From a virus (taxonomy: Duplodnaviria; Heunggongvirae; Uroviricota; Caudoviricetes): DNA of 26,772 bases. The notes beneath the pieces were generated by a model. That model was not told the DNA's origin and searched no databases. It worked only from the letters and a program-made list of their open reading frames with translations. The DNA lies in the IMG/VR virus record IMGVR_UViG_2778260994_000003, positions 1 to 26,772 of that record, one strand, 5' to 3'. Every line of letters begins with the position of its first letter. Within the stretch, counting starts at the first letter, position 1. Below are positions 1 to 16,743 of this stretch, in pieces. A program made the position numbers and the translations under genes.

Positions 1-1284
1 TTACAGACTTCTGGAAGGTTGCGCAGCTCTTACAACACGCGGTTGATCTTCCGCAGCGTCTTCCAGCGCACTTAAATCACGGTCTTTCACTTCTGGCATT
101 TTCAGCGCAGAGATTAAACCAATCACTGAATATGCCATGATCATAATGGCGATCGGATACCAGGATTCCGTCATGGTGCAGAAAATACCCGCCAGGATAG
201 GACCAAAACCGGAAGCGATAAGACCACCAATTTCTTTAGAAATGGCCATCCGGGTAAAGCGGTTTTTACAGCCGAACATTTCTGCCATGGTAATGTTTTC
301 CAGAGCAAATAATCCCAGCACCGCACAGTTATGAATCACAATCAGTGCAACCATAATGGTGCTCGGGGCATAGCTTTTATCTACAATGATAGAAAGCATT
401 GGCCATGCCAGCACAATCGCGGAGGTATTCATAATAATATACGGGATCCGGCGACCAATTTTATCGGATAACCAACCAAGGAACGGAATGGTCATAAAGC
501 CGAGAATCGAACTAATCATCAATGCATCTGTTGGAATTGCTTTGTTAAACAATAACGTCTGCACTAAATAGCCTGCAAGGAAAGTCTGAATTAACCCGGA
601 GTTACCCGCCTGACCAAAACGCAGCCCTGTTGCCAGCCAGAAGGATTTGCTCTGGAACATGCTACCAGCAGGTGCAGGTTTTGCTGTGGGTTGGTTGCTG
701 TCATTAACCTTCTCAAAGACCGGGCTTTCTTTCAGATTCATACGTAACCAGATAGCAAAGACCATCACGACAACGCTCGCCAGGAACGGTATACGCCATC
801 CCCACGCCAGCAGTTCCTCTTTACTGAGAATGAAGAACATAAAGGCCCAGATTGCCGTTGCGCTCAAGGTTCCGCAGTTAGTTCCCATAGCTACAAATGA
901 GGAGATAATTCCGCGCTTACCTTTTGGTGCATATTCCGCCAGCATCGTACCGGCACCGGAAATTTCCGCACCTGCACCCAACCCCTGAATAATACGCAGC
1001 GTCACCAGCAAGATGGGGGCAAAAACACCAATCTGTGCATAGGTCGGTAACACACCAATTAAGGTGGTACAGATCCCCATCATGGTGATGGTAATAAAGA
1101 GCACTTTTTTACGCCCTATTCTGTCGCCCATTTTGCCGAAAATAAATGCTCCGACAATACGCGCCACATAACCTGCACCGTAGGTTCCCATTGCCAAAAT
1201 TAACGCCATTGCCGTTGATGATTCAGGAAAAAATATTTCATGAAACACCAACGCTGCGCCGAGCGAATATAACTGGAAATCCAT
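1..1284 (-). CDS. ydfJ: MHS-family MFS transporter (YdfJ-like), apparently lacking its 5' end
   Basis: 427-aa ORF with MFS motifs (GKMGDRIGRKK, 12 predicted TM segments). The ORF begins MDFQLY, i.e. inside the conserved TM1 motif (E-W-F-D-F) of ProP/KgtP-type transporters, so about 25-30 N-terminal residues appear missing. Prophage tail-fibre remnants follow immediately. Symbol from remembered similarity to the E. coli Qin-flanking ydfJ. Confidence 0.75.
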   Translation of the reverse strand: MDFQLYSLGAALVFHEIFFPESSTAMALILAMGTYGAGYVARIVGAFIFGKMGDRIGRKKVLFITITMMGICTTLIGVLPTYAQIGVFAPILLVTLRIIQGLGAGAEISGAGTMLAEYAPKGKRGIISSFVAMGTNCGTLSATAIWAFMFFILSKEELLAWGWRIPFLASVVVMVFAIWLRMNLKESPVFEKVNDSNQPTAKPAPAGSMFQSKSFWLATGLRFGQAGNSGLIQTFLAGYLVQTLLFNKAIPTDALMISSILGFMTIPFLGWLSDKIGRRIPYIIMNTSAIVLAWPMLSIIVDKSYAPSTIMVALIVIHNCAVLGLFALENITMAEMFGCKNRFTRMAISKEIGGLIASGFGPILAGIFCTMTESWYPIAIMIMAYSVIGLISALKMPEVKDRDLSALEDAAEDQPRVVRAAQPSRSL

Positions 1285-1503
1285 AATTCATAGATATTTT
1301 TTACCATCCTATGGATTTTTGGGCGTTTTCTAAGTTTTTTCAGATGGTTGTATTTTTTCTAAAAACTCCTGATCTCGATTTTGCTGTTTGTCTGAGACCT
1401 TTTTATGTCCCATATATGCCCCAAGGTGCCCCATGTAAATCCAATTCAACTCAAAGCATCCCTGTTCAATATTTTTACAAGGGGCTTGCATATCAGTGTT
1501 TTT

Positions 1504-2070
1504 TTATTGCGTAACGTCAAACGCTCGGATTGAGCGTAAATCATCAAGATTATTCAGCTCTTCCTTCATCTCCCGCTGACGACGATAAATCTCGTCATTG
1601 CGATCGGCCTGTGCCCGTGCCATTACTGCCGCAAGTTCTTCCAGTTCCTGCATCGTCAGGAGGATTGGCGTATTCTCTCCATCTCCCCAAACAATTGTTT
1701 CTCTGCCAGCTCCTGATTTCGCCGCCATTACCACTGGTAAGAGGCGGGACAGCGAAACCGGACCAGCATTCCATTTGTGACCTTTCCATTCCAGCATGAA
1801 CGACATGGACTCCTGTTCCTGACGCCATACTTCGATCTCACACACTTTAGCCTCTTTTTCTGCGGCAATAAGTTCAGGCGTAACGGTAAACCGGGCTATT
1901 CCGCCCCACTTCCCGCTTTGCAGTTCCTGCCAGACCTGTTTACCCATTTCCGCAACATCATTCTCAACAGCGGTATAAGGTAGATGTACCTCCTGCCCCT
2001 CCAAAAGCACTTCACAATATACAGCACCATCCTCCAGAAACATGGCATTTCTTATATTTTTTATCTGCAT
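1504..2070 (-). CDS. Putative tail-fibre assembly/chaperone protein
   Basis: 188-aa ORF starting 7 nt after the tail-fibre fragment stop, the position where lambdoid phages carry tfa. No canonical Tfa C-terminal motif was recognised, so the function is positional inference. Confidence 0.4.
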   Translation of the reverse strand: MQIKNIRNAMFLEDGAVYCEVLLEGQEVHLPYTAVENDVAEMGKQVWQELQSGKWGGIARFTVTPELIAAEKEAKVCEIEVWRQEQESMSFMLEWKGHKWNAGPVSLSRLLPVVMAAKSGAGRETIVWGDGENTPILLTMQELEELAAVMARAQADRNDEIYRRQREMKEELNNLDDLRSIRAFDVTQ

Positions 2071-2076
2071 ACTCTG

Positions 2077-2670
2077 TCACCCGACCCGCACAAATAATCC
2101 TATATACGCTTCCTTTCCGTTGGTGGTATAAAGACCATCTCCCCCCAGAGACTGATACACTCCGGGAAATGCCGATGTATTCGTTCTGCCAATGACAAAC
2201 GTTGCCTCCCCTTTCATTGTGCCTGCTCCTGTCACGCCTCCCACTACTATTTCCACCGGCGCAAGTGCTTTTCCCGGGCATGGTTGTCCACGACTCAGGC
2301 GCATTAAAACTCCACCTTCCGCTACTCCCAAAAAAGCTGCCATAACCACACTGCCGATATCCGGTTTCGGCGAACTGATACTTCTTAAAAATTCATCCTT
2401 TGATAATTTGCTCTGAGCCTCATCCATTACCACTTTGACCGCTTTTGGGGTTGCCGCCAGTGACTCGGAAGTGCTGTTTGTCGCACTACTGAGTTGTACT
2501 ATCCCTTTCTGTGCTGTCGTTGCATTCTGTGCGGTGTATTTCCCGTTAGCCAGGTCATACGCGGCCTTAACTGCTTTTGGCGTTGCCGCCAGTGACTCGG
2601 AAGTACTGTTTGTCGCACTGCTGAGTTGTACTATCCCCTTTTTCGTCGTGCTCGCATCCTCAAGCGCCAC
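2077..2670 (-). pseudogene. Side tail-fibre gene, C-terminal fragment (stf remnant)
   Basis: Encodes two copies of the tail-fibre repeat peptide KGIVQLSSATNSTSESLAATPKAVK. It has no plausible start and its 5' end overlaps the Nu1 remnant in another frame, indicating a deletion junction near 2670-2690. Confidence 0.7.
2441..2637. repeat. Two near-identical ~65-bp copies at a 132-bp (44-codon) period inside the tail-fibre fragment
   Basis: Copy 1 about 2441..2505 and copy 2 about 2573..2637 (gcttttggSgttgccgccagtgactcggaagtRctgtttgtcgcactRctgagttgtactatccc). They encode the repeated tail-fibre peptide. Confidence 0.8.
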
Positions 2671-2900
2671 GGCGTATGCAATATCCTCTGCCGCAGTTCT
2701 TCAACTTCCCGGCGCAGCTTTTCGTTCTCAATTTCAGCATCCCTTTCGGCATACCATCTTATAACGGCGGCAGAGTCATAAAGCACCTCATTACCCTTGC
2801 CACCGCCTCGCAGAACGGGCATTCCCTGTTCCTGCCAGTTCTGAATGGTACGGATACTCGCACCGAAAATGTCAGCCAGCTGCTTTTTGTTGACTTCCAT
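2631..2900 (-). pseudogene. Terminase small subunit Nu1, N-terminal ~71 codons only (nohA/nohD-type remnant)
   Basis: N-terminus MEVNKKQLADIFGASIRTIQNWQEQGMPVLRGGGKGNEVLYDSAAV matches phage lambda Nu1 as I recall it. After about residue 71 the frame diverges into unrelated sequence and stops. Confidence 0.85.
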
Positions 2901-3077
2901 TGTTCATTCCACGGCCAAAAACAGAGAAAGGAAACGACAGAGGCCCAAAAGCTCGTTTTCAGCACCTGTCGTTTCCTTTCTTTTTAGGGGGTGTTTTAAA
3001 TAAAAACATGAAGTTACGGCGAAGAAGAACGGAAACGCCTTAAGCCGGAAAATTTTCATAAATAGCGAAAACCCGCG

Positions 3078-3089
3078 AGGTCGCCGCCC
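3078..3089 (-). other. cosN cohesive-end sequence (GGGCGGCGACCT on the minus strand) with flanking lambda-like cos region
   Basis: The minus strand reads CCGATCCGACAGGTTACG-GGGCGGCGACCTCGCGGGTTTTCGCTATTTATGAAAATTTTCCGG, which matches the lambda right-end/left-end junction as remembered. The cosB-like region lies between 2901 and 3077, upstream of the Nu1 remnant. Confidence 0.75.
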
Positions 3090-3288
3090 CGTAACCTGTC
3101 GGATCGCCGGAAAGGACCCGCAAAATGATAATAATTATCATCTACATGTCACAACGTGCATCTACGCCATCAAACCACGTCAAATAATCAATTATGACGC
3201 AGGTATCGTATTAATTGATCTGCATCAACTTAACGTAAAAACAACTTCAGACAATACAAATCAGCGACACTGAATACGGGGCAACCTC

Positions 3289-3483
3289 ATGTCAACTAAG
3301 AACAGAACCCGCAGAACAACAACCCGCAACATCCGCTTTCCTAACCAAATGATTGAACAAATTAACATCGCTCTTGAGCAAAAAGGGTCTGGGAATTTCT
3401 CAGCCTGGGTCATTGAAGCCTGCCGTCGGAGACTAACGTCAGAAAAGAGAGCATATACATCAATCCAAAGTGATGATGAATAA
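3289..3483 (+). CDS. Small prophage protein, YlcI/YnfO-like (DUF3950-type)
   Basis: 64-aa basic ORF between the cos/Nu1 remnant and bor, the same position ylcI occupies in DLP12. Family assignment is from memory only. Confidence 0.5.
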   Translation: MSTKNRTRRTTTRNIRFPNQMIEQINIALEQKGSGNFSAWVIEACRRRLTSEKRAYTSIQSDDE

Positions 3484-3843
3484 ACATCCCGGTTTCTTCC
3501 ACCATCGCACCGGAAAAGCGACTATGAGGGTAACCCTGCGTCTGTCAGCACAGTAAAACCCGGTGTGCATCGTTTTTGATTATTCCCGCACACTCACGCA
3601 GAAGGAATTCCCCGTCGGGCTACGGTCATGGTTAATGCGGGAATACGGCGACGATACAGCGCAGCTAAAAGGGTAATGGACAGATAGAGCGGTTTATTTC
3701 ATTCCACAGGATTCTGAGTGCCCCCCCTCCTCCAATAGGCTGAGCATCCACCTATATAGTTTTAATTTTCATCAATCCATTTAACTATCGTTTAATTGTT
3801 GTCACATAGGATTCTGCCGTTTTTAACAATGCAGGATAATAAG

Positions 3844-4137
3844 ATGAAAAAAATGTTGTTTTCTGCCGCTCTGGCAATGCTTATTACAGGATGTGCTCAA
3901 CAGACGTTTACTGTTGGAAACAAACCGACAGCAGTAACACCAAAGGAAACCATCACCCATCATTTCTTCGTTTCGGGAATTGGACAGGAGAAAACTGTTG
4001 ATGCAGCCAAAATTTGTGGCGGCGCAGAAAATGTTGTTAAAACAGAAACCCAGCAAACATTCGTAAATGGATTTCTCGGTTTTATTACTTTAGGCATTTA
4101 TACTCCGCTGGAAGCGCGTGTGTATTGCTCACAATAA
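3844..4137 (+). CDS. bor: Bor/Iss-family outer-membrane lipoprotein
   Basis: MKKMLFSAALAMLITGCAQQTFTV...TPLEARVYCSQ with lipobox LITGC, near-identical to lambda Bor as recalled. AGGA motif upstream of the ATG at 3844. The track ORF beginning at 3796 is an N-terminal over-extension. Confidence 0.9.
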   Translation: MKKMLFSAALAMLITGCAQQTFTVGNKPTAVTPKETITHHFFVSGIGQEKTVDAAKICGGAENVVKTETQQTFVNGFLGFITLGIYTPLEARVYCSQ

Positions 4138-4309
4138 CTGCATGAGTTGCCCATCAAACGGGCAACTCTTTCTACTTTGTTCCTCCCCCCCCGGAAACGG
4201 CGGAAGTAAGAAATTATGTCATCGAATGATCACAAACATAGAATTTCATGCTTTCCGGACGCAAGTGACCCCTTCATTTTTCAGCAAAATATTCTGCTCT
4301 TACAGGCGA

Positions 4310-4826: not shown

Positions 4827-5372
4827 TTAAACTGCTACGCGCTCTTTCATCCAGCCGTAGACAAACGACTCGTTGGCCTCGCGTTTTTCTGCCAGCTCCA
4901 GATAGCGGTCGCCCTGCGTGCAATTCAGCGCCTTCAGCATCACCAGTTCGCCGTCTTTGCCGCGTTTTTGCAGATAAGTCCGTAGTGCATTAATCGTGCG
5001 GGGGCCGATACGCCCGTCTGCGTCCATATCCGGGAACAATTTGCCTTGCAGGTTGAAAACGTTCAGCCAGCGTTGGAGCATTTTCGATGCTACGGACGGC
5101 CCCATATTCACACCGGTATCACACAACTCTGCAGCAATATCAGAGGATAATGCGGCCACCTGATCAAAGCGTGGTCCGAACCAGTAATCCGCCTCAAGGA
5201 TTTCCAGTGCCTGTTCGCGTGTCAGGTCACGCATATCGCCCTGATATCCGTGAGCGCGGGCGACTTTTTCCGTAATACCCCATTTTGTCGGTCCGCCTTT
5301 ATCATCCGGGTGATTGACGTAACCGCCCTCTTTTCCCAGAACTTCGTCAAAAATTTCATCTTTCGACTTCAT
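4827..5372 (-). CDS. Endolysin, GH108-type muramidase with C-terminal peptidoglycan-binding domain
   Basis: Motif EGGYVNHPDDKGGPTKWGIT near the N-terminus and DADGRIGPRT near the C-terminus. The ATG at 5372 is coupled to the upstream stop (TGATATG). The track start at 5393 is probably an over-extension. Confidence 0.8.
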   Translation of the reverse strand: MKSKDEIFDEVLGKEGGYVNHPDDKGGPTKWGITEKVARAHGYQGDMRDLTREQALEILEADYWFGPRFDQVAALSSDIAAELCDTGVNMGPSVASKMLQRWLNVFNLQGKLFPDMDADGRIGPRTINALRTYLQKRGKDGELVMLKALNCTQGDRYLELAEKREANESFVYGWMKERVAV

Positions 5373-5373
5373 A

Positions 5374-5652
5374 TCAGCGTCTTCGTAATACAAAGATTTT
5401 TGAAACGTTCCCGCGTGCGCGAATAACCAACACGCAGAACAGCAGATTAAGCCCCACCGCCAGCCAGTTCGCCGCTAACGGGCGACCGCACAGATAACTG
5501 AGTGGTGCAAAGGCATAAAGCAGCATCAGCAGCCAGGCCAGCCATGACATCAACGGTTTATGTCTGGAATCACGACGACGATAAAAAAAGAGCGTCAGCA
5601 CGATAACCGTGCATAACGCCACATTCAGCAATCCGGGAAGGTTACTTAACAT
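5374..5652 (-). CDS. Lysis-cassette membrane protein (holin or antiholin-like, 3 predicted TM)
   Basis: 92-aa hydrophobic protein with GGAGG upstream of the ATG at 5652. It overlaps the upstream ORF's stop and abuts the endolysin start. Confidence 0.5.
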   Translation of the reverse strand: MLSNLPGLLNVALCTVIVLTLFFYRRRDSRHKPLMSWLAWLLMLLYAFAPLSYLCGRPLAANWLAVGLNLLFCVLVIRARGNVSKIFVLRRR

Positions 5653-6034
5653 TGCCGCCTCCTCCGCCCCGCAGACGGGAGAACAGACCGGACACCAGTG
5701 ATGCAATATCCTGCTGGTGGATGAACGAGAGAATCTTCACCGACACCACTGACACCAGTACTGCACACAATGCGTCGACAGGTGCACCGTCAAACTCTGT
5801 ATGCTTTACCAGCCAGGATGCCAGAACTTCTGCCCCCAGCACACCAACAATGAACGACACCAGAAAATGTGCCGCCACACGCCAGGCTGAAAGCGCCTGC
5901 GGCATCGTTGCCACAAATAACGCCCCGGCAAAGGCACCAAACACAATCCCGAAATCCGTTCCGGTAAACAGCCCGTACACCGTCGCCCCGCCGAGCGCTG
6001 CAGCCGTGCCGGAACCGGATAAGGGTTCAGACAT
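5642..6034 (-). CDS. Putative holin (Gly/Ala-rich multi-TM protein)
   Basis: 130-aa membrane protein starting MSEPLSG with AGGAG 7 nt upstream. It is the first gene of the lysis cassette. Confidence 0.5.
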   Translation of the reverse strand: MSEPLSGSGTAAALGGATVYGLFTGTDFGIVFGAFAGALFVATMPQALSAWRVAAHFLVSFIVGVLGAEVLASWLVKHTEFDGAPVDALCAVLVSVVSVKILSFIHQQDIASLVSGLFSRLRGGGGGNVK

Positions 6035-6051
6035 ACTTTTTCTCCTGTAAA

Positions 6052-6074
6052 TAAAAAAGGGCCACCAGCGGCCC
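6052..6074 (-). terminator. Short GC hairpin plus T-run on the minus strand, immediately upstream of the holin RBS (tR'-like position)
   Basis: GGGCC-6 nt-GGCCC followed on the minus strand by TTTTTTATTT. Confidence 0.4.
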
Positions 6075-6395
6075 GTAAAAAAACACCCCGTGAAAGGCAC
6101 CCGCAGATACCTTTTATGTGGTGTTATCTGATGTGATATGCGCCTGACGTGGCTCGGAGAAAATGAAATAAAGCTTATCTGAAATTAAGGTTAATCCGGG
6201 GGTTTAAACCATTTTTAAAGCTTAGTAATATCAAATCGTCTCCTGGAGGAGACTGATGCTTATTCTTCTTCACGGACTTTGTCCCGCGGCGTTAATCCGA
6301 CAGCCGCGCTTTTTTTGCGCTCAGTTCATTATTGGCTTTCATGGCCTTGCCACACGGGTAATATCAATGCCCGTGTATTCTTTTCTGAGTTCAGA

Positions 6396-6423
6396 ATAAA
6401 AAAAACCGCCCGGAACGGCGGTT
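6396..6423 (-). terminator. Intrinsic terminator (minus strand) downstream of the tRNA genes
   Basis: AACCGCC-6 nt-GGCGGTT stem followed on the minus strand by a 9-nt T-run. Confidence 0.65.
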
Positions 6424-6781
6424 GAAAAATGCCAGAGATGAATCATTTTTGTAGTAGAAAAACAGAGGTGTCGGGTGCCCCCCGAAGTATCCATCTCTCC
6501 ATGAATACTGTGGTTTCCCGCTAAACAGTTACATAAACCACCCTCGCACTGAGGAACACCTCTGTAGTGTTATTTACAACACCGGGATAGTGCATCATCG
6601 GCCCCTGTCAGGAAATGCTCAATTTCCACCGATAATGCACCATTCCAGTGGTGTAAAAAACAGCACTGTGGCTATAACCGACCTCAAATCACAGCCAGAA
6701 AACAGAATGCCTTTTAAAAACAACCTGCTCCCACGCAATAAAAAATACGCCAGTGCAACGATACAATAAGGCTTGTTTCTC

Positions 6782-6856
<75 letters not shown>

Positions 6857-6859
6857 ATA

Positions 6860-6935
<76 letters not shown>

Positions 6936-7103
6936 ACAGGTTCCTCAAGAGAAATAAAAATGACCGCGCTTACATCCCCTTCGGAACCGGGTACCGATAT
7001 TAATAATGCCAGCTCTCTTTTCAATGGAAAATCATATCAAGATTTGTAAATATACGTATATATTTTTATTTTTTATGAAATAAAGAAATTATTAAATGCA
7101 TAT

Positions 7104-8150
7104 TTAACGATTATTTTTTATTTCAGTTACAGTCTGATTAAATCTCTCTTCTTCCAGTTCCACGCCAATTGCGCGACGTCCCAGTGAAAGTGCTGCTTTT
7201 ATTGTTGAGCCAGACCCCATAAAAAAATCAGCGACCAAATCACCGGGGCGACTGCTGGCAGTAATTATCTGACGCAACATATCTGCCGGTTTTTCACAGG
7301 GATGTTTGCCTGGATAATACTGCACAGGCTTGTGCGTCCAGACATCCGTATACGGAACAGCAGCTGATACGGAAAAATAACGCCGCAGGGATTTATACTC
7401 CTCCTGCAGGCTGGCATATTGCCGGTTCAGTTCACTGTATGTGCTGACCAGCTGGTGGTGCGGCTTTTCCAGCTCCCCGCGCTGATGTTTTTCTGCTGCA
7501 ACACGCGCGAACAGCGCCTGAAGTTTTTTGTAATCAGCCTCGTTCGGCAACTGCCACTGACTGGCACCAAACCAGTGTGACGCCATGTTTTTCTTTCCGG
7601 TGGCTTCCGCTATCTGTTTTGATGTTATCCCCAGAGATTCTCGCGCATCACGAAAGTAAGAAATCAGCGGGGCCATGACGCACTGTTTAAGCTCGCGCCC
7701 CTTTGCCGCATAGCCGTCATTTTTGGGCTGGTATGGCCCCTGATAATGTTCAGCAAACAGAATGCGCTCTGTTGCCGGGAAATACGCCCGCAGGCTTTCC
7801 TTGTTGCATCCGTTCCAGCGTCCGGACGGCTTCGCCCAGATAATGTGGTTCAGCACATTAAAGCGTTCACGCATCATGATTTCGATATCAGATGCCAGGC
7901 GATGCCCACAGAACAGGTAAAGGCTTCCGGCAGGTTTCAACACCCGCCAGAACTGGGCCAGACAGTGGTCCAGCCACTTAAGGTAATCTTCGTCCCCTTT
8001 CCACTGATTGTCCCAACCGTTGGGTTTCACCTTGAAGTAAGGCGGATCGGTAACAATCAGGTCAATGGAATCATCAGGCAGGGACTGAATAAAATGCAGG
8101 CAATCAGCGTTGATTAAATCAACACTGTTTATTTTTACAGTATTTTTCAT
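7104..8150 (-). CDS. DNA methyltransferase, beta-class N6-adenine/N4-cytosine type (orphan, phage late region)
   Basis: N-terminal DPPY motif (SIDLIVTDPPYF) and C-terminal SAM-binding motif (DFFMGSGST), the permuted order typical of beta-class amino-MTases. No cognate nuclease is adjacent. Confidence 0.85.
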   Translation of the reverse strand: MKNTVKINSVDLINADCLHFIQSLPDDSIDLIVTDPPYFKVKPNGWDNQWKGDEDYLKWLDHCLAQFWRVLKPAGSLYLFCGHRLASDIEIMMRERFNVLNHIIWAKPSGRWNGCNKESLRAYFPATERILFAEHYQGPYQPKNDGYAAKGRELKQCVMAPLISYFRDARESLGITSKQIAEATGKKNMASHWFGASQWQLPNEADYKKLQALFARVAAEKHQRGELEKPHHQLVSTYSELNRQYASLQEEYKSLRRYFSVSAAVPYTDVWTHKPVQYYPGKHPCEKPADMLRQIITASSRPGDLVADFFMGSGSTIKAALSLGRRAIGVELEEERFNQTVTEIKNNR

Positions 8151-8299
8151 GGATCAGTAAGCGTAACTCTGGTAGGCTCACTCTGCTTTTGCGCTAAAGC
8201 AGTGGGCCGTGGTTCGCTTGTGACCAGTAAGCATGAGCGAATGGCTGGCAGGTGCTACCAACACCCACCAGCCGCCCATTTTCACAAATTAAAAGCCCT

Positions 8300-8518
8300 T
8301 CATTGCTGAAGACGTCTGTAACAGCCGAACTGGTAATCTGCCAGCCCCGCCATAACCAACTGGGTCAGTATTAACTGACAGCGTTCGCGTGAAAGGTATG
8401 TGTTTTGTGCAATCTCCCCGACTGTTGCCGGTTCGATGCTTAATTCATTAAAAACAACTTTCGCCGTTTCTGTCATATCTTGCTGTTTTAGCATGTCTTT
8501 TTCCCTTCTGGTTAACAT
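8300..8518 (-). CDS. Hypothetical small protein, possible winged-helix fold
   Basis: 72-aa ORF with a weak RBS at the first ATG; an internal ATG at about 8494 has a better AAGGGA. Function unknown. Confidence 0.35.
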   Translation of the reverse strand: MLTRREKDMLKQQDMTETAKVVFNELSIEPATVGEIAQNTYLSRERCQLILTQLVMAGLADYQFGCYRRLQQ

Positions 8519-8616
8519 GACATACCAATAACTCTTGTCTAAAAAGCCAGCAAGATAAAAAGTCAGTATTCACTACCACCAGCGTGTTTACCGTACTGCA
8601 CCAAGTTTACAGGTAC

Positions 8617-8642
8617 AAAAAAACCCGCTCGACGGCGGGTTT
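8617..8642 (-). terminator. Intrinsic terminator on the minus strand
   Basis: AAACCCGC-6 nt-GCGGGTTT stem followed on the minus strand by a 7-nt T-run, in the divergent intergenic region upstream of the HslV-like gene. Confidence 0.65.
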
Positions 8643-8707
8643 AAGCTGTGTGGCGAAGTAACCACTCTTAACAGATTACAAGAATTTTTGCGTACGCGTT
8701 AATTTTT

Positions 8708-8737
8708 TTGTATTTTTCTCATTACACAACATATAAA
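8708..8737 (+). promoter_or_regulatory. Candidate sigma70 promoter for the HslV-like gene
   Basis: TTGTAT (8708..8713), 18-nt spacer, TATAAA (8732..8737). This would give a near-leaderless transcript; there is no obvious Shine-Dalgarno before the ATG at 8751. Confidence 0.3.
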
Positions 8738-8750
8738 CCCTATGTAAAAA

Positions 8751-10034
8751 ATGACAGCAGAAATAGCCGTATTTAACAAGACCGCAGTAGCTTTAGCCGC
8801 AGATTCAGCTGTAACGATTTCTGGAGGCGGCAAACATAAAATCTATAATGGCGCTGAAAAGCTTTTCGCTCTCACTAAACATCATCCTGTAGGTTTGATG
8901 GTATATGGAACTGGTGATCTCTGCACAGCTCCATGGGAGCTTATCATTAAGGCTTATAGAAAGGATTTAGGCTCTAAATGTTTTGACTCTTTGGAGGAAT
9001 ATGCTGAGGATTTCTTCAATTATCTACAGTCAGCTAAATCAATCATCACACCAGGTATGCGTGAGGCTCATCTTTATCACTTCCTGAGCGAGATTGTATT
9101 CAGCATGCTTGTTGATGCTTTTTCTGAAGGTCTCGAACCAACATATCTCGTTAACTTCGATAAGAATCAATTTGTTACAGACCTCACGAATTATTGCAAC
9201 GATCTCCTTACAAAATTATCTGATATTAATTACTTTGATGGTTTTACTCCGGATGATGAACAAGCAGCCCAAACCTATGCTTCATCAATTACCCAACGCA
9301 TCATTGCTCAAAAGTTTAGTGACTTTGATTCAATATCCATAACTCCACAGTTGACAAAAGCAGTTAGTGATGTATTGGCAGCTATGATATGCAAGCAAAG
9401 TGATATTGGTTCCGTCTCTGGGATTGTGATTGCAGGTTATGGCGATAAAGACTATTACCCTAAAGTATTATCATATGAAGTTTGTGGCTTCTTTAATGAT
9501 AAAATAAGGAAAACCACAGATGCTGACAAGTGCTGCATCACTCCTAATTGCGGCGTGACTCCCTTTGCGCAAGAGGATGAAGTTTCTGCTTTCATGCAAG
9601 GAGCTAGTTCACATCTTATCCAAAATCTTCATGCTGAGTATCAACGTTCTATCGGCGATTTACTTGATGGTATTGATTCAGTAATCACAGATTTGGTGCC
9701 CACTTCAGATATCGAAGGAGCCAAGGATGCTATAGTTGATGTAGTGCGCAGAACTGTTTCCGATTGCAAGGGGCGTATTGATAGCTTTGTCCGAGAAAAC
9801 TATGTTGACAAAGTCGTAAATATGATCGAGTTTTTACCCAAGCAAGATTTAGCTTATATGGCTGAATCATTAGTAAATTTAACCGCTTTCAAGCGCAAGG
9901 TCTCCGATGATACTGAAACAGTGGGAGGCCCCATAGATGTTGCAATCATTTCTAAAGCTGATGGTTTTATCTGGGTTAAACGTAAGCACTATTTTGCAAA
10001 AGAACTGAACCATCACTACTTTTCACGGTCATAG
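8751..10034 (+). CDS. HslV/proteasome-beta-like N-terminal-nucleophile hydrolase homologue (427 aa), function unknown
   Basis: After Met removal the protein starts T1-A-E-I-A-V and carries D17 (VALAADS), lysines at 27/29/36 and a VGLMVYGTGDLCTAPWELI segment. These align gaplessly with remembered HslV [21 protein letters not shown]...VIAGFAGGTADAFTLFELF. Low GC, and on the strand opposite the late operon. Confidence 0.5.
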   Translation: MTAEIAVFNKTAVALAADSAVTISGGGKHKIYNGAEKLFALTKHHPVGLMVYGTGDLCTAPWELIIKAYRKDLGSKCFDSLEEYAEDFFNYLQSAKSIITPGMREAHLYHFLSEIVFSMLVDAFSEGLEPTYLVNFDKNQFVTDLTNYCNDLLTKLSDINYFDGFTPDDEQAAQTYASSITQRIIAQKFSDFDSISITPQLTKAVSDVLAAMICKQSDIGSVSGIVIAGYGDKDYYPKVLSYEVCGFFNDKIRKTTDADKCCITPNCGVTPFAQEDEVSAFMQGASSHLIQNLHAEYQRSIGDLLDGIDSVITDLVPTSDIEGAKDAIVDVVRRTVSDCKGRIDSFVRENYVDKVVNMIEFLPKQDLAYMAESLVNLTAFKRKVSDDTETVGGPIDVAIISKADGFIWVKRKHYFAKELNHHYFSRS

Positions 10035-10057
10035 CAACAAATAGACAAGGGGAACAC

Positions 10058-10207
10058 ATGTCACTTAAGCAAGCCTATGAAAGAACTCAACCCAAAAGCA
10101 TCAATGATTTCTTTCAGTTGAGTACTTCTGGAAAGAGTCGACGTACTGTAACAAGCCAATCTAACTTCTTTACTAAATTGAACAAAACATTACCTGCACA
10201 ATCCTAA
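10058..10207 (+). CDS. Small 49-aa Ser/Thr-rich ORF co-oriented with and 23 nt downstream of the HslV-like gene
   Basis: AAGGGGAA Shine-Dalgarno 5 nt before the ATG. Peptide MSLKQAYERTQPKSINDFFQLSTSGKSRRTVTSQSNFFTKLNKTLPAQS. Ends 6 nt before a terminator hairpin. Too short for the ORF track. Confidence 0.35.
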   Translation: MSLKQAYERTQPKSINDFFQLSTSGKSRRTVTSQSNFFTKLNKTLPAQS

Positions 10208-10213
10208 AATGCT

Positions 10214-10235
10214 AAAAGCCACTACGGTGGCTTTT
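10214..10235. terminator. Bidirectional terminator hairpin between the HslV-like cassette and Q
   Basis: AAAAGCCAC-TACG-GTGGCTTTT, T-rich on both sides. Confidence 0.6.
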
Positions 10236-10240
10236 AGCTT

Positions 10241-10594
10241 TTATTTACATGCAATAACGCTCGTAATACCCTCTACAAAACCAATTGCAGTTTGTAATTC
10301 CTTTCTAATCGTGCCATCTGAACACCTTCTCTTTTTGGCAATAGTGCGTAATGAGATACCAATAACAAAGTGGGCTATGATGAGCTCATATTCCTCTGGT
10401 TTATACCTTCTCAACCGAGCCACACAACTGTCTATCATAATGCCTTCGTCATCATCACACTGAATCCGTGACTTTTTGCCATGAGGTAAAAGCCCCTTGA
10501 AGCCCGCTGCTATCGGTTGCCAATCGACACCACTATTTTCTGCTGCAGCCCATGCCCCCCAGCGGTCTAAAACCTCATACATATCACGCCCCAT
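10241..10594 (-). CDS. Late antiterminator Q (QuuD/QuuQ-type)
   Basis: LDRWGAWAA...DWQPIAAGFKGL...KSRIQCDDDEG matches the remembered QuuD pattern. The probable start is the ATG at 10594; the track ORF begins with GTG at 10603. Confidence 0.8.
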   Translation of the reverse strand: MGRDMYEVLDRWGAWAAAENSGVDWQPIAAGFKGLLPHGKKSRIQCDDDEGIMIDSCVARLRRYKPEEYELIIAHFVIGISLRTIAKKRRCSDGTIRKELQTAIGFVEGITSVIACK

Positions 10595-10955
10595 TACTAT
10601 CACCTCTAATTTCGCAAATCTTCACGCCCAGCCGACCACCAGGAACGAGCTTACCGCGCACAATATTGATTTCATCAAACTGCTCGTCGTCTATGAGAAG
10701 CCCCGCATGCGTCAGTGCATCCAGCGGTGCTTTCAGGATATTGTCCAGGTCCCGACGGCGCTTATCCGGCGGCTCTGCAGTAATTTTTATTGCCAGCCTT
10801 CCGGACAGGTTTAATTTCAGCCGCTGCTGGCGGACAATAAGTGCCACATCCCGGCGATAACGCTCACCGGCTTTTGATACAAAATATGTGCTGCCACGAC
10901 GACGCCAGTAGGTGTTCACCGTCGGCGGGTAAGGCAAAACAAACTCTATACGCAT
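10584..10955 (-). CDS. rusA: Holliday-junction resolvase RusA
   Basis: LPYPPTVNTYW...DKRRRDLDNILKAPLDALTHAGLLIDDEQ, the RusA catalytic-Asp pattern. Overlaps the start of Q. Confidence 0.85.
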   Translation of the reverse strand: MRIEFVLPYPPTVNTYWRRRGSTYFVSKAGERYRRDVALIVRQQRLKLNLSGRLAIKITAEPPDKRRRDLDNILKAPLDALTHAGLLIDDEQFDEINIVRGKLVPGGRLGVKICEIRGDSNGA

Positions 10956-10967
10956 CAGTAACCTCTT

Positions 10968-12014
10968 TTACCCGAGCACGCCGGTTGCAAAGGCGCGATC
11001 AAGAAAACGAAAAATTAAATCAATCTGGGAACCATGCTTTTCTTCAAATGCCAGCGGATCAGCATGAAGTTCGTTGTGATGCTCCCGGCACAACGGTAGC
11101 GTGAAAATATCGTGGGCTTTTGTCCCTATTCCGCCCTGACCATGACCAATCAGGTGATGGGGATCGTCGGCTGGCTTACCACAACACGCACACGGCTGTG
11201 TCTTTACCCAGCGCGTATATTTCTCATTTACCCAACGGCGACGTTTAGGTCGCTTCATGAAAGATTCCGGAGACTCCGGATCAACAGCAATGCTGACCAC
11301 CGTCTTTTCCTGTGGCGGGTTTTGCTGGTGGGCGTGAGGCAGCGGCGCAAGATTTTTTGTGCGCTGCTTCAGTATGCTGGTGGCGGTCTGCTCTCCCGGT
11401 ACGATGTCGCTTTCGCGGTACACCGAGCGAATTTTTTCCGCACGTAACCCCAGAGAACGACGTAATACTACCTCCGGTAGTGCGTCCGCCACCTGATTGC
11501 AGACAGCCCACCAGGATAATTCAGCCAGCGATAATTCCCGCTCCTGTGTGCCATTCATTGCATGGCGCATGACGTCAATCATCCATGCTGACAGGTTTTG
11601 GTGAGCAAGTTGCTCAAGTGATTCGGAGGACTGGTCACGCAACTGGTTGTCACAGTGCCAGCACAACACCATCGCGCCAGCACCGTAACGATGTATGACG
11701 GTTTCGCTGTGATGGTAATCACCATGAGGCCACTGGCAGGATTTAACATGACGCAGGAGCCAGTCAGACAGTGCACCAGCGCCGCCGGCAGCACGAATCA
11801 CCCGCTCGTTACTGAAAAACGGCAGTAATGATTTATCCTCCGCCAACGGCTGGCGAACGGCAGGAACGACTCCGGACGGCAGACTGCGCATGCTTTTCGG
11901 TTCAGGCTCCACCAGCACCCGGGGATTGTAAAATACCTGCATGGATTCACGACCAGGCTTAACGATCACCAGCCCGAGTTCCGGTACCGGAACAGGTCTA
12001 AGTAATACCCGCAC
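10968..12014 (-). CDS. DUF968-family prophage protein (YdfU-like) with C-terminal Cys/His motif
   Basis: 348 aa with C-terminal CACCGKPADDPHHLIGHGQGG...CREHHNELH. GTG start preceded by GGAGG. Same position relative to Q as ydfU in Qin, as recalled. Confidence 0.7.
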   Translation of the reverse strand: MRVLLRPVPVPELGLVIVKPGRESMQVFYNPRVLVEPEPKSMRSLPSGVVPAVRQPLAEDKSLLPFFSNERVIRAAGGAGALSDWLLRHVKSCQWPHGDYHHSETVIHRYGAGAMVLCWHCDNQLRDQSSESLEQLAHQNLSAWMIDVMRHAMNGTQERELSLAELSWWAVCNQVADALPEVVLRRSLGLRAEKIRSVYRESDIVPGEQTATSILKQRTKNLAPLPHAHQQNPPQEKTVVSIAVDPESPESFMKRPKRRRWVNEKYTRWVKTQPCACCGKPADDPHHLIGHGQGGIGTKAHDIFTLPLCREHHNELHADPLAFEEKHGSQIDLIFRFLDRAFATGVLG

Positions 12015-12393: not shown

Positions 12394-12461
12394 AAGTGCG
12401 GGTGCGTTGAGAATGCCTGCCACATCAGAGGTGGCGAGGGATTTCTCCCTCGCCGGGTCTC

Positions 12462-12617
12462 TTACTCCTCAGGTTCGTAAGCTGTGAAGACAGCGACCTC
12501 CGTCTGGCCGGTTCGGATTCGTACCTCGCAGAGGTCTTTCCTCGTTACCAGTGCCGTCACTATGGCGGTTAAACAGATGACGATCAGGGCGATTAACATC
12601 GCCTTTTGCTGCTTCAT
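12462..12617 (-). CDS. hokD: Hok-family type I toxin (51 aa)
   Basis: Hand translation gives MKQQKAMLIALIVICLTAIVTALVTRKDLCEVRIRTGQTEVAVFTAYEPEE, essentially the HokD/RelF sequence as I remember it. GGAG upstream. A 19-codon upstream ORF (about 12614..12675) overlaps the hok ATG. Too short for the ORF track. Confidence 0.85.
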   Translation of the reverse strand: MKQQKAMLIALIVICLTAIVTALVTRKDLCEVRIRTGQTEVAVFTAYEPEE

Positions 12618-12828
12618 AGCCTGCTTCTCCTTGACCTTTCGGTCCGTAAGAGGCTAATCTCTATGTGTCGCATAGATATGGCCTCAGATTAATGTTAAGC
12701 GTCTTGCAGGACGCGTAATGTTAACTGGGGCTTTTCTCTATCTGCCTTTTGGTGTTCATGCCTGAGACAGATAGCCTCAAGCACCCGCAGCCATTCTACT
12801 TAACTCCCGTTACCTCGCCAATATAAAA

Positions 12829-12918
12829 TCAATCAGAAAGGCGATCCATAAGAACAACAGCAAGACAATAAATTGCCATTACAGCTGCAATAGCCAGCGC
12901 ACATTTGAGAACCAGCAC
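12829..12918 (-). CDS. Candidate 29-aa hydrophobic peptide gene
   Basis: GTG start with a perfect AGGAGG 5 nt upstream. Peptide MLVLKCALAIAAVMAIYCLAVVLMDRLSD (one TM helix). Not in the ORF track because of its length. Confidence 0.3.
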   Translation of the reverse strand: MLVLKCALAIAAVMAIYCLAVVLMDRLSD

Positions 12919-13148
12919 GACAACCTCCTGTATTGGACGTACACCAGTCCTGATAAATATGAGGCTGTCTCATCATTGATGAGATACAACTATTGGGTAT
13001 AGTTTCTGTGATTTTGTTCTGTAGAAATGGAACACAACAACCAGTCACCACCAGTACTTCTTTAAATACGCCAAGTCCGACGCAAGCTAACCTTCTAGTC
13101 CGCTTTGAGCGAAATGCGGACATGCGGGAGCATGGTTTATGTATGAAA

Positions 13149-13985
13149 CTAATGATGATAAATACCATCGTCTAAAGGGGGACCTTCAGCCGTAACCCCC
13201 GTGATACTACTTGGCGGTTCAAAGATGGCCCGACCAAATATTGCATCAAACTCTGCTTTTGTGACTGATAAGTATTGCAAGATGAGCTCTAGCAGCTCTC
13301 TGTACGTATCACAATGCCATTCAATGTGAGGACATATTCGGGAGAGAACTCTGTTCTTAAAATCATCCAGATTATTTGGGACTTCCAGCAAGTTACCAGT
13401 GTTTAATGCTTTCGACATAAACTTGTAATTGAGCATAGAGAGAACCACTACTGATACACCTTTCTCTTGCCTTAACTGATCGAACTTCTCTTGTGCTTGA
13501 AGGCTTAGCTTGGCGTATTCGCGATCTCGTTTAGAGTTGATTGGTTCGACGTACTGAAGCGGTTCGTCTGCAGCATCACCGATACGTGGACAAAAGTATC
13601 TATTCCACCAAGCCTCAAAATACCTTTTTTGGAACTCAAGGTATGTCATCCCAATAATATTGGTGTTTTGAGTGTACTGTTTAGCACCCTGCTGAAGCCC
13701 GTGCTTTGAAATAATAAATCCAATATTAGCCCCGGTTTCATGCATTACCGTGGTGAACGAATGGACCACCGTCTGTGGTATAGAACTACCCCAGTTTTTG
13801 CATTCCACAATGTATCTGATTTTGTCCACGCTCCTAACATCTGTAGCAAGAACATCCACATTCACCGAGCCACGCGGGGTTTCTAAATCGACCTCGACTT
13901 CTGCAAACAAGCCAACATTACGGAATATACGTTGGACCCCTGTCTGGAGGTCTTGCCAGTTTTCTGGTAGTGGGTCATCGATCAC
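13149..13985 (-). CDS. Mrr-like (PD-(D/E)xK restriction-endonuclease fold) N-terminal domain protein with unknown C-terminal domain
   Basis: VDVLATD...IRYIVECKNWGSS...GFIISKHG pattern (D...E-C-K) typical of Mrr/restriction-endonuclease catalytic cores. GTG start with AGGAAAAG upstream. GC content lower than the host-like genes. Confidence 0.55.
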   Translation of the reverse strand: MIDDPLPENWQDLQTGVQRIFRNVGLFAEVEVDLETPRGSVNVDVLATDVRSVDKIRYIVECKNWGSSIPQTVVHSFTTVMHETGANIGFIISKHGLQQGAKQYTQNTNIIGMTYLEFQKRYFEAWWNRYFCPRIGDAADEPLQYVEPINSKRDREYAKLSLQAQEKFDQLRQEKGVSVVVLSMLNYKFMSKALNTGNLLEVPNNLDDFKNRVLSRICPHIEWHCDTYRELLELILQYLSVTKAEFDAIFGRAIFEPPSSITGVTAEGPPLDDGIYHH

Positions 13986-14279
13986 TTCTGCTTTTCCTAT
14001 GCACTATCCGCATGCTTTTAAGACTACTTGAAGACACAAACGTCGTCATCCACTAAAAGGTTCAAATTTGAGATAAAAGTTCGTTTCTGGTACGAAGCGG
14101 ATCGTTTGAAGAACCGTGTGATCTGCTAAGAGCGAGGAGTGGACGTTCTCAAGGGATTGCTTACATCGAGGATGTATGAATCAACGGGGTGCAGGTCACA
14201 ATATATGCTATCACTTGGTTGTTGAAACGAATGCCAAAGCCTGTGACGAGCGAGGAGTAGACTTTGGCACAAAAAAAAT

Positions 14280-15233
14280 TTAAGTGTCCGATGACTTTGT
14301 TTCAGCCGCTTTATCCTCAACCAATACCCAATCTCCGGAGCTAACCTTTGTCATAAGACAAAATGGAAAGTTGTTAAAAAAATGTTCAATATCACTTGAG
14401 GGTATTTTCTCAATTTTATTTAAACAACCATCAGCTATTTGTAGGGAAATCATTTCTCTTGTAATTTTCATAAATTGATCAACATCAGATAACAACCATG
14501 TTTCATGATGAGCACCAAACAATTTGTGCGGTATATCATCAAGAATAAGATTGTCTAAATCATGTGATTTATCTTTGTTTAGCTCAAGAAGTACAAAATC
14601 AAAAAAATCAAAAAGATATGAATAGAGAAGATGAGTATAAAAGGTAAAATAGTAATCAGCAAAATTAATATTGTTATTGAATCTATTTGAATACATCATA
14701 TGAGGTTGAATCAGATCGTTTAGATCAGAGTCATATGCTTGGAAACAAATCTTTGTTTTAATATTATCATCGTTGACATAATAAGGATTTACTGTTATCC
14801 CTCCATGAACTATCTTATTTCTTATTTTATTAAAGTCCTTATACCATTTTAAATTCAAATCTGGAAATTCCTGTGCATATTGCTGGAAATGATTTTCAAG
14901 GTAATCATATTTGTTGCCATTTTTTTTAGTTGGAAAAATTAATTTATCAGCTATCTGATATGCAATATCCCATATCGTGCTGATTTTATAATAGCAATAC
15001 TCAATAGCACTAATGCTGACAATTGATGTTGCATCATGTTTTCTGATGAACTCAGCATCTTTTTGAATTTTATTAATGTAAGTAATCATATAAAACAGTT
15101 TCTTGAAATGAGTTTTTAAATTTTTTAAAAGAAACTGAAGTTTTATGTCTTCCAGTGTATCTTCTTCATACTTATTTAAGTACATAATAATTTTATAAAG
15201 TGGACTGCCAACTCTTTTTGCATGTACATCCAT
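14280..15233 (-). CDS. AT-rich hypothetical protein with a HEPN-like R-N-x3-H motif (Abi-like candidate)
   Basis: 317 aa at roughly 30% GC. Contains KIRNKIVHGG (R-x4-H with a polar residue after the Arg). GGAG RBS and its own TTGACT-17-TTAAAT promoter. Confidence 0.45.
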   Translation of the reverse strand: MDVHAKRVGSPLYKIIMYLNKYEEDTLEDIKLQFLLKNLKTHFKKLFYMITYINKIQKDAEFIRKHDATSIVSISAIEYCYYKISTIWDIAYQIADKLIFPTKKNGNKYDYLENHFQQYAQEFPDLNLKWYKDFNKIRNKIVHGGITVNPYYVNDDNIKTKICFQAYDSDLNDLIQPHMMYSNRFNNNINFADYYFTFYTHLLYSYLFDFFDFVLLELNKDKSHDLDNLILDDIPHKLFGAHHETWLLSDVDQFMKITREMISLQIADGCLNKIEKIPSSDIEHFFNNFPFCLMTKVSSGDWVLVEDKAAETKSSDT

Positions 15234-15273
15234 TATTTACTCCAATAAATCAATGCGAACATTTTAATTGAAA

Positions 15274-15302
15274 ATTTAATGCCAAAAACTTTAGTTAGTC
15301 AA
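15274..15302 (-). promoter_or_regulatory. Candidate sigma70 promoter for the HEPN-like gene
   Basis: On the minus strand: TTGACT (15297..15302), 17-nt spacer, TTAAAT (15274..15279), about 40 nt upstream of the ATG at 15233. Confidence 0.4.
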
Positions 15303-15402
15303 TAATTTATTCAAACGTCCGCTACTGGCACAAAGCAGACGCCCACTCTCACGCGAATGCTTTGCCCTTGACTTGCCAACAACCGTATCGCTTGCTCCGC
15401 AA

Positions 15403-16695: not shown

Positions 16696-16715
16696 ATTGC
16701 AGCCGGGATAAATAA

Positions 16716-16736
16716 ATGCCGCCTCTGTGGCGGCAT
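16716..16736 (-). terminator. Hairpin with T-rich tail 8 nt after the betT-like stop
   Basis: ATGCCGCC-TCTGT-GGCGGCAT perfect inverted repeat followed on the minus strand by TTATTTAT. Confidence 0.5.
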
Positions 16737-16743
16737 GTTGCTG

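Follow-up and report, generated by a model that had tools for sequence, protein, structure and literature searches.

What does a DNA methyltransferase gene do in the late region of a lambdoid prophage, what does it modify, and what keeps it in check? These questions are raised by a gene in the window, i.e. the whole analyzed stretch of 26,772 nucleotides (positions 1 to 26,772 of the IMG/VR record IMGVR_UViG_2778260994_000003). An earlier reading of the nucleotide sequence without database searches (hereafter the sequence-only reading) described its product as an orphan beta-class enzyme, expressed late and protecting phage DNA from restriction. The gene and its two catalytic motifs are located as follows.

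7104..8150, minus strand: methyltransferase coding sequence, 348 aa, ATG start (open reading frame and PF01555)
8037..8048, minus strand: catalytic motif IV, DPPY, residues 35-38 (DPPY is kept in all 15 of the 15 full-length relatives translated)
7209..7223, minus strand: AdoMet-binding motif I, FxGxG in the form FMGSG, residues 310-314 (alignment)

The gene is real and intact, and it encodes a beta-class N6/N4 DNA methyltransferase. The Pfam search matched the protein to PF01555 (N6_N4_Mtase; E=5.2e-45, 154.5 bits against a cut-off of 26.7 bits) over residues 29-340, which correspond to profile positions 1-219 of 221. The order of its motifs, with motif IV followed by a central TRD and a C-terminal motif I, places it in the beta class. 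The PDB sequence matches are all to beta-class enzymes, including M.RsrI, M.MboIIA, CcrM, DpnA and PvuII, and both DPPY and FMGSG (the latter within FFMGSGST, residues 309-316, window 7203-7226) align with the equivalent motifs in the solved structures of M.RsrI, M.MboIIA, CcrM and others. The sequence-only reading had assigned the class from the DPPY...FxGxG pattern and had named degeneracy of these motifs on alignment as the way in which it could fail; both motifs are intact in the alignment with beta-class relatives, and the assignment stands. In strain H3 the protein carries the RefSeq name DNA-methyltransferase (WP_000799652.1). Comparison of the window gene with 8 relatives for which dS is unsaturated gave dN/dS values of 0.03-0.115 (0.09-0.115 for the six closest), i.e. 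the family is under purifying selection. The protein is ~83% identical to M.EcoGII over the full length, without internal indels (348 versus 349 aa), and ~89%, ~88% and 74% identical to the reconstructed ancestors Anc291, Anc289 and SUPREM, respectively; these identities are approximate, as the sequences of M.EcoGII and five ancestors were machine-read, with a few OCR errors, from Supplementary Table S1 of PMC11551740, and the assignment to the M.EcoGII type is one of pairwise identity and not of a formal tree.

Of 5426 complete E. coli genomes, 2618 contain homologues of the gene, and a single genome may have as many as 8 copies; the nucleotide search identified the gene in 50 phage records, including phiP27, SfV (orf48) and mEp460, with identities of 92.5% in SerU-LTIIb and 88.9% in Stx2c phages. 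The methyltransferase itself is therefore already known and the finding is ordinary: it adds a further allele to the M.EcoGII family, which is available as a commercial enzyme and is common as a prophage gene.

The window represents a lambdoid prophage inserted at the E. coli ydfJ (Qin) site. Its best whole-window matches among complete E. coli genomes are ETEC strains (80% coverage at 99.4%). Strain H3 matches it at 100% over positions 6000-11000, and several ETEC genomes are 99.4-99.9% identical to it. The right end carries int, xis, exo and cI (S24 peptidase) on the plus strand, followed leftward on the minus strand by cro, a ydaT-like gene, a replication gene and DUF977. Next come a low-GC cargo block (BCCT transporter, DUF2254, a 317-aa ORF and an ORF with an Mrr_cat domain) and then DUF968, RusA, Q, a plus-strand 427-aa ORF, a terminator, a 64-aa ORF, a leader and the methyltransferase. 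To the left of the methyltransferase lie tRNA-Thr and tRNA-Gly (Rfam tRNA scores of 69.8 and 65.6 bits), two holins, an endolysin and Bor, and the left end is formed by a fragment of Nu1 (71 of 164 profile positions), an overlapping tail-fibre remnant, DUF4376 and a truncated ydfJ. The features that define the neighborhood of the methyltransferase are:

13149-13985, ~5 kb upstream of the methyltransferase: Mrr_cat-domain ORF, the only nuclease-fold ORF, in the separate low-GC block
10968-12014, minus strand: DUF968, upstream of the methyltransferase
10584-10955, minus strand: RusA, upstream of the methyltransferase
10241..10603, minus strand: antiterminator Q of the PF06530 type (E=1.3e-43)
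8751-10034, plus strand: 427-aa ORF between Q and the methyltransferase, modeled by AF2 with a proteasome/Ntn-hydrolase-like fold
6860-6935, minus strand: tRNA-Thr(TGT) (ARAGORN; Rfam tRNA)
6782-6856, minus strand: tRNA-Gly(TCC) (ARAGORN; Rfam tRNA)
4827..6100, minus strand: lysis cassette of two holins (Phage_holin_8 and a 3TM holin) and a GH108 endolysin (Pfam)
5642-6100 and 5374-5706, minus strand: the holins (Pfam)
4827-5393, minus strand: the GH108 endolysin (Pfam)

The methyltransferase lies on the strand of Q, 3' of Q and of a tR'-type terminator and 5' of the lysis genes, which agrees with the late-strand position given by the sequence-only reading and with the annotation of SfV; between it and Q there are an opposite-strand moron, the terminator, a small winged-helix gene and a structured leader. 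The claim that it is an orphan has likewise held up. The locus is not a type II restriction-modification system, with no endonuclease adjoining the methyltransferase (its neighbors are the winged-helix ORF, the ORF with the predicted proteasome fold and the tRNAs). In PADLOC, the gene had methyltransferase hits only and its neighbors had no hits, and no nuclease neighbor is conserved across 80 related loci. The 427-aa protein is a member of a large, uncharacterised gammaproteobacterial family with an invariant N-terminal Met-Thr, a conserved Asp18 and conserved lysines; it has no match in Pfam, NCBIfam or PADLOC, and its AF2 model (pLDDT 84, pTM 0.79) matches 20S proteasome subunits, i.e. the model indicates an Ntn-hydrolase fold and not a nuclease. 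A restriction-modification pair composed of the methyltransferase and this ORF was rejected because of the proteasome-like fold and because the slot between Q and the methyltransferase module is variable, being occupied by unrelated genes in other genomes. PDB and NCBIfam searches with the Mrr_cat ORF and its neighbors added nothing.

Two elements upstream of the 64-aa ORF bear on the timing of expression:

8621..8642, minus strand: intrinsic terminator, AAACCCGCCGTCGAGCGGGTTT followed by a T-run, conserved, likely the tR' of the late operon
8643..8700, minus strand: candidate late promoter/qut block, AAAAAT..TGTAAT..CTGTTAAGAGTGGTTACTTCGCCACACAGCTT, shared with phiP27 and PEC422

The terminator is conserved in phiP27, PEC422 and SfV, in the last of which it has been annotated as rho-independent. 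The ~50 nt upstream of it are common only to phages with a related Q (phiP27 and PEC422, whose Q is 43-44% identical) and are absent from SfV, whose Q is unrelated; the block thus fits a cognate late promoter/qut site, and the scan for consensus promoters called no late promoter upstream of the terminator. The late promoter of Stx phages is constitutively active, and during lysogeny its transcripts end at tR' (PMC7547250). Judging by its position, the methyltransferase would be expressed late and in a Q-dependent manner.

We consider it likely that the gene encodes a non-specific enzyme of the M.EcoGII type, which in intact phages is made late, under the control of Q, and counteracts restriction, and that the copy in the window is probably a silent passenger of a prophage that cannot make particles. 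In intact lambdoid phages the methyltransferase, its leader and usually the winged-helix gene would be the cargo carried first on the late, Q-dependent transcript. In the lysogen, transcription from the late promoter would end at the terminator 8621-8642, and any read-through mRNA would be poorly translated, with the leader pairing to bases 5' of the AUG and keeping the toxic enzyme off; the leader would in this way provide a further lock on translation or transcription. Upon induction, the Q-modified RNA polymerase would pass the terminator, and the enzyme would heavily methylate replicating, concatemeric phage DNA at most adenines before packaging, making the progeny resistant to many m6A-sensitive restriction systems of the next host. 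The window copy could be active only with Q expressed, its substrates then being the host chromosome or co-resident phages. A late anti-restriction role has been proposed for the M.EcoGII family by Murray et al. and in later reviews (PMC5778455, PMC12707154), and to this extent the function suggested by the sequence-only reading is in agreement with the literature; protection of the phage's own progeny, however, does not apply here, since without head, tail and packaging genes the window copy has no progeny of its own to protect. In the literature searched, no report of hypermethylated virion DNA or of an effect on the efficiency of plating was found for a phage carrying the M.EcoGII family. 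In keeping with the proposed mechanism, family members have been found silent in lysogens, including by RT-PCR in ST131 (PMC4659465), and toxic upon expression, and alpha-class non-specific methyltransferases fill the mom slot of Mu-like prophages (PMC3299994).

A quite possible alternative, which we nevertheless doubt, is that in this prophage the gene is inert, a relic without expression or consequence for the cell, spared by chance in the deletion that crippled the element. Everything from residue 71 of Nu1 to the C-terminus of the tail fibre is missing, with the loss of all head, tail and packaging genes, and the prophage is therefore defective; in strain H3 the decay has gone further (the holin is frameshifted and the endolysin truncated), the family is transcriptionally silent in lysogens, as mentioned above, and alleles at least 99% identical to the window gene occur in 10 records only, so that selection within this lineage is not assessable. 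Against this, the ORF, its motifs, the leader, Q, cI and the lysis genes are all intact in the window, so that induction could express the gene, and the family-wide dN/dS of ~0.1 indicates that the gene is functional where the phages are intact.

The second gene of the module raises the question of a possible partner of the methyltransferase:

8300..8494, minus strand: gene of a 64-aa stand-alone winged-helix protein (phrog_331, E=5e-35)

NCBI names this protein either "TrmB family transcriptional regulator" or "DprA-like winged helix". Its AF2 model (pLDDT 89.7) exhibits an H-H-H-beta-hairpin topology and was matched by Foldseek to winged-helix domains of IclR, OhrR, O-methyltransferases and SelB (TMq 0.7-0.83). 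Of 80 related loci, 73 of them with 600 nt or more of sequence on the upstream side, 61 have the ORF in front of the methyltransferase, and these range from Escherichia to Proteus and Xenorhabdus. The search of phage records revealed it in 57; wherever a listed record could be paired with a methyltransferase hit, the ORF lies ~150-180 nt upstream of the methyltransferase. This conserved association would be expected if the methyltransferase did not act alone on DNA but, together with the winged-helix protein or the leader RNA, were directed to a specific nucleic acid (rRNA or mRNA) and thereby regulated phage development. The MT-A70 enzyme of phiPA8, which requires the wHTH protein PNB-2 to target 16S rRNA (PMC10810198), provides a precedent; the winged-helix model is clean, with the RNA-binding winged-helix domains of SelB among its matches, RNA is methylated by M.EcoGII in vitro (PMC5778455), and in the literature consulted M.EcoGII was characterised as a single protein. 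Nonetheless, we regard such targeting as unlikely: M.EcoGII on its own is highly active on DNA, the phiPA8 enzyme (gp5) is a member of another family (DPPW, MT-A70), and ~14 related loci keep the methyltransferase and the leader in the absence of the winged-helix ORF, for which reason the winged-helix protein was rejected as an obligate partner or subunit.

The preferred reading, of an enzyme that methylates adenines regardless of context, draws on what is known of the M.EcoGII family. In vitro, M.EcoGII itself modifies as many as 99% of adenines irrespective of context and accepts ssDNA and RNA as substrates (PMC5778455). All of the reconstructed ancestors amenable to purification acted on both DNA and RNA. 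Tests of M.EcoGII, Anc291 and SUPREM confirmed their lack of sequence specificity, and this property was kept in ancestors as distant as 71% from M.EcoGII (SUPREM) (PMC11551740). Among site-specific enzymes, the nearest known relative is M.PflMI, which shares only ~27% identity with M.EcoGII and is devoid of the highly charged interdomain linker (PMC11551740). The window protein possesses such a charged linker (residues ~200-265), which aligns without gaps to that of M.EcoGII. Because it is 83-89% identical to enzymes that methylate adenine in any context, the window enzyme most likely methylates adenine in DNA without sequence specificity, and the statement of the sequence-only reading that the target sequence is unknown is out of date: given ~83% identity to M.EcoGII and 88-89% to Anc289 and Anc291, the likely target is any adenine. 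The ~17% of residues that differ from M.EcoGII are scattered over the N-terminus, TRD, linker and C-terminus, and this divergence, falling partly in the TRD and the linker, could alter the activity. An E. albertii locus (L008) with the same upstream module as the window (winged-helix ORF and leader) encodes an enzyme that is 95% identical to M.EcoGII (OCR copy) and 84.5% identical to the window protein. The sequence search of the PDB found no solved structure of M.EcoGII.

That the enzyme is instead a sequence-specific orphan methyltransferase with a short recognition motif, as the sequence-only reading had it, now appears very improbable. Such an activity would be in keeping with the majority of PF01555 enzymes, which are site-specific, with the name "site-specific DNA-methyltransferase" given to relatives by RefSeq and NCBI, and with the location of some of the differences from M.EcoGII in the TRD region; but the similarity to three enzymes of demonstrated non-specificity extends over the full length with no TRD swap or indel, non-specificity persisted in ancestors as far removed as SUPREM, and the closest site-specific enzyme is as remote from M.EcoGII as stated above. 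The label "site-specific" attached by annotation pipelines to M.EcoGII-family genes is probably wrong. The methylome expected of an active enzyme is a blanket, motif-free m6A, and the absence of a motif must not be taken to mean inactivity; the sequence-only reading, which proposed to regard its claim as refuted if expression yielded no new methylated motif, would thereby wrongly reject an active non-specific enzyme.

Host take-over or toxicity as the main function, with blanket methylation of the chromosome disturbing host replication, repair and transcription, is more improbable still: producing the enzyme does harm E. coli, and heavy methylation lowers the transformation of plasmids by 4-5 orders of magnitude (PMC5778455), but lysis soon follows the switch-on of the late genes, leaving little to gain, and the phage's own DNA would be equally affected.

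If the enzyme is a non-specific and harmful one, it becomes important how its synthesis is controlled, and the control region is the only part of the locus that is possibly new. The spacer between the 64-aa ORF and the methyltransferase (~150 nt) is highly conserved and non-coding, and contains the following elements:

8151..8285, minus strand: conserved non-coding structured 5' leader of the methyltransferase, ~135 nt (helix pairing and covariation)
8233-8279, minus strand: P1+P2 hairpin (leader alignments)
8236-8241 with 8213-8218, minus strand: helix P3 (leader alignments)
8183-8202, minus strand: helix P4 (leader alignments)
8216-8225 with 8152-8162, minus strand: long-range helix P5/P6 (leader alignments)

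The structure of the leader is well supported. Its predicted fold (-56.9 kcal/mol, z=-3.98) is well below that of shuffled controls, and in the helix alignments A3, A4 and A6, which comprise 21-29 distinct sequences, 91-96% of cells in the named helices are paired, versus 31-47% with the partners slid. Compensatory changes were identified in P2 (five pairs), P3 and P6, e.g. the P3 pair 51-75 occurs as CG in 15 sequences, AU in 6, UA in 4 and UG in 1; the covariation is modest and comes partly from one clade (Proteus/Morganella). In P5/P6, GGUCAcAAGC (8216-8225) pairs with GCUUacUGAUC (8152-8162), ending one base before the AUG, and the methyltransferase gene has no evident Shine-Dalgarno sequence. 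P3 has bases in common with both P1 and P6, so that two folds which exclude each other are each supported. Loci of Xenorhabdus and Photorhabdus have a shorter spacer, and many of them carry a U-run behind the hairpin, which turns it into a terminator. Assignment of the leader or the pR' transcript to a known RNA family was rejected, as Rfam gave no match to the leader and none beyond chance to either. Likewise, a small peptide encoded in the spacer (ATG GGC GGC TGG...) was rejected because of a TAG at codon 8 in most relatives and of frame-shifting indels. No description of the leader was found in the literature consulted.

We tentatively suggest, with considerable reservation, that the leader could be a cis-regulatory RNA switch, in which the fold with P1 and P5/P6 hides the start codon, the exclusive fold with P3 frees it, and a trans-acting factor throws the switch late in infection. 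Candidates for this factor are the 64-aa winged-helix protein (in a Com-like role), RNase III, the methyltransferase itself, or a small ligand of the SAM/SAH type. Such a control region may explain how phages silence a dangerous enzyme in lysogens.

Among the closest known systems are lambdoid phages with orthologous genes: SfV orf48, phiP27 L24, the Stx2a/2c/2d methylases, mEp460 and SerU-LTIIb exhibit 83-92% nucleotide identity. SfV, phiP27 and E. coli prophages share the same order (Q, terminator, small ORF, methyltransferase, tRNA or toxin genes where present, lysis), and SerU-LTIIb matches the downstream half (methylase, tRNAs, holins/endolysin). In SfV the terminator, the small ORF and the leader are nearly identical to those of the window, according to the alignment. 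These phages, however, are complete, with stx or elt cargo following the tRNAs, whereas the window has no toxin genes and its morphogenesis genes are deleted. M.EcoGII and M.EcoGI from prophages of E. coli O104:H4 C227-11, as well as M.EcoMV from ST131, are of the same family and have the same motif order. M.EcoGII shares with the window gene the charged linker and the status of a prophage-borne orphan; it differs in that the window allele resides in a defective prophage at the Qin site. The alpha-class enzymes Hia5, Hin1523, Nma1821 and M.HaeV of Mu-like prophages are also non-specific m6A methyltransferases in a late, mom-equivalent slot, with a presumed anti-restriction function (PMC3299994), but they have the reversed order of FxGxG, TRD and DPPY and no detectable close sequence relationship to the window protein. 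In the Stx phage phiPA8, the methyltransferase M.EcoPA8orf6770P is co-transcribed with upstream winged-HTH genes, and the partner protein PNB-2 alters the choice of substrate (PMC10810198). This rRNA methyltransferase was rejected as a homologue and serves as an analogy only, being an MT-A70 enzyme with DPPW, not a member of PF01555, and encoded in the early-left region and not between Q and the lysis genes.

A further parallel is the com-mom module of phage Mu, which produces a late, toxic, adenine-modifying anti-restriction enzyme. The mom gene is preceded by a gene of a small nucleic-acid-binding protein and by an mRNA structure that occludes the start, and Com activates translation (PMC6483171). 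The layout in the window, with the 64-aa winged-helix gene, a leader pairing just before the AUG and the methyltransferase, resembles that of Mu as an analogy only: the Mu proteins are unrelated to those of the window (Com is a zinc finger and Mom an enzyme of the acetyltransferase fold), and the winged-helix gene, the counterpart of Com by analogy alone, is missing from the ~14 related loci mentioned above. If the leader does act as a switch, it would represent a second, independent translational gate of the com-mom kind, one that controls a DNA-modifying anti-restriction enzyme and occurs in roughly half of E. coli genomes.

The methyltransferase gene of this prophage is preceded on its 5' side by a conserved, structured non-coding leader, and further upstream by a small protein gene:

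8151-8285, minus strand: structured non-coding leader, directly abutting the methyltransferase AUG
8300-8494, minus strand: gene for a stand-alone winged-helix protein of 64 aa (phrog_331)

The leader folds with a z-score of -3.98 and comprises the hairpins P1/P2, P3 and P4 together with a long-range helix (P5/P6) that closes onto the bases immediately preceding the start codon; covariation was found within P2, P3 and P6, and an Rfam search with the leader returned no match. P3 is mutually exclusive with P1 and P6, and the leader therefore has alternative folds. In the Xenorhabdus and Photorhabdus members of the set of 80 related methyltransferase loci (L050-L076) the leader is present in a short form of 76-107 nt, and at many of these loci a U-run follows the main leader hairpin, so that an intrinsic terminator separates the winged-helix ORF from the methyltransferase.

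The phrog_331 winged-helix gene occurs in 57 phage records and is conserved 5' of M.EcoGII-family genes in 61 of the 80 related loci, and its product could regulate the methyltransferase or act as its partner. The leader is retained also at loci that lack this gene. Some of the loci without the winged-helix ORF have other small genes before the leader, as in L012 and L013 at 203-443 nt on the 5' side of the methyltransferase ATG. One such substitute encodes a Cys-rich protein of 79 aa that carries CxxC motifs, looks like a zinc ribbon and recalls Com, the zinc-finger protein of Mu.

The region further upstream (8621-8700, minus strand), which ends at the late terminator, is conserved with the comparison elements phiP27 and PEC422 and likely corresponds to a short pR'-to-tR' transcript of ~50-60 nt; the sRNA StxS of Stx phages arises by processing of the corresponding terminated transcript (PMC7547250). 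Alignment of window positions 8130-8700 with SfV (L004:3480-4020) revealed that the terminator, the winged-helix ORF, the leader and the first ~20 nt of the methyltransferase gene are nearly identical, whereas the remainder of the gene is only 83% identical. This mosaic boundary implies recombination at the 5' end of the methyltransferase gene.

Between Q and the late terminator a gene of low GC content has been inserted on the opposite strand:

8751-10034, plus strand: 427-aa gene, GC 0.39
10211-10238: terminator of this plus-strand gene

Its product belongs to a gammaproteobacterial family of >6000 uncharacterised members with an invariant N-terminal Met-Thr, and the AF2 model matched proteasome subunits, with large helical inserts. 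It may represent a novel moron or defence gene of the Ntn-hydrolase type.

Another low-GC region lies elsewhere in the prophage:

12400-18750, minus strand: low-GC cargo block, also containing a DUF2254 gene and a BCCT transporter gene (both minus strand)
13149-13985, minus strand: Mrr_cat ORF with a restriction-endonuclease fold (PF04471, E=4e-11)
14280-15233, minus strand: 317-aa ORF, GC ~0.30

If the Mrr-like nuclease were m6A-dependent, it would conflict with a blanket adenine methyltransferase in the same element.

The prophage is defective, and in the window none of the terminase, portal, capsid or tail genes is present. Its left end (within 1-4200) retains the following:

2631-2900: Nu1 fragment, covering 71 of 164 profile positions
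2077-2670: tail-fibre remnant, overlapping the Nu1 fragment and directly after it
1-1284: truncated host ydfJ, separated from the tail-fibre remnant by DUF4376

Finally, a stretch of ~680 nt between the tRNAs and the holin is non-coding:

6100-6780, minus strand: tRNA-holin gap
6404-6423, minus strand: strong terminator-like hairpin inside the gap

No ORF of at least 60 aa and no significant Rfam match were found in 6100-6780. In Stx phages such as phiP27 the equivalent slot is occupied by stx; in SerU-LTIIb the elt genes are placed after the lysis genes.
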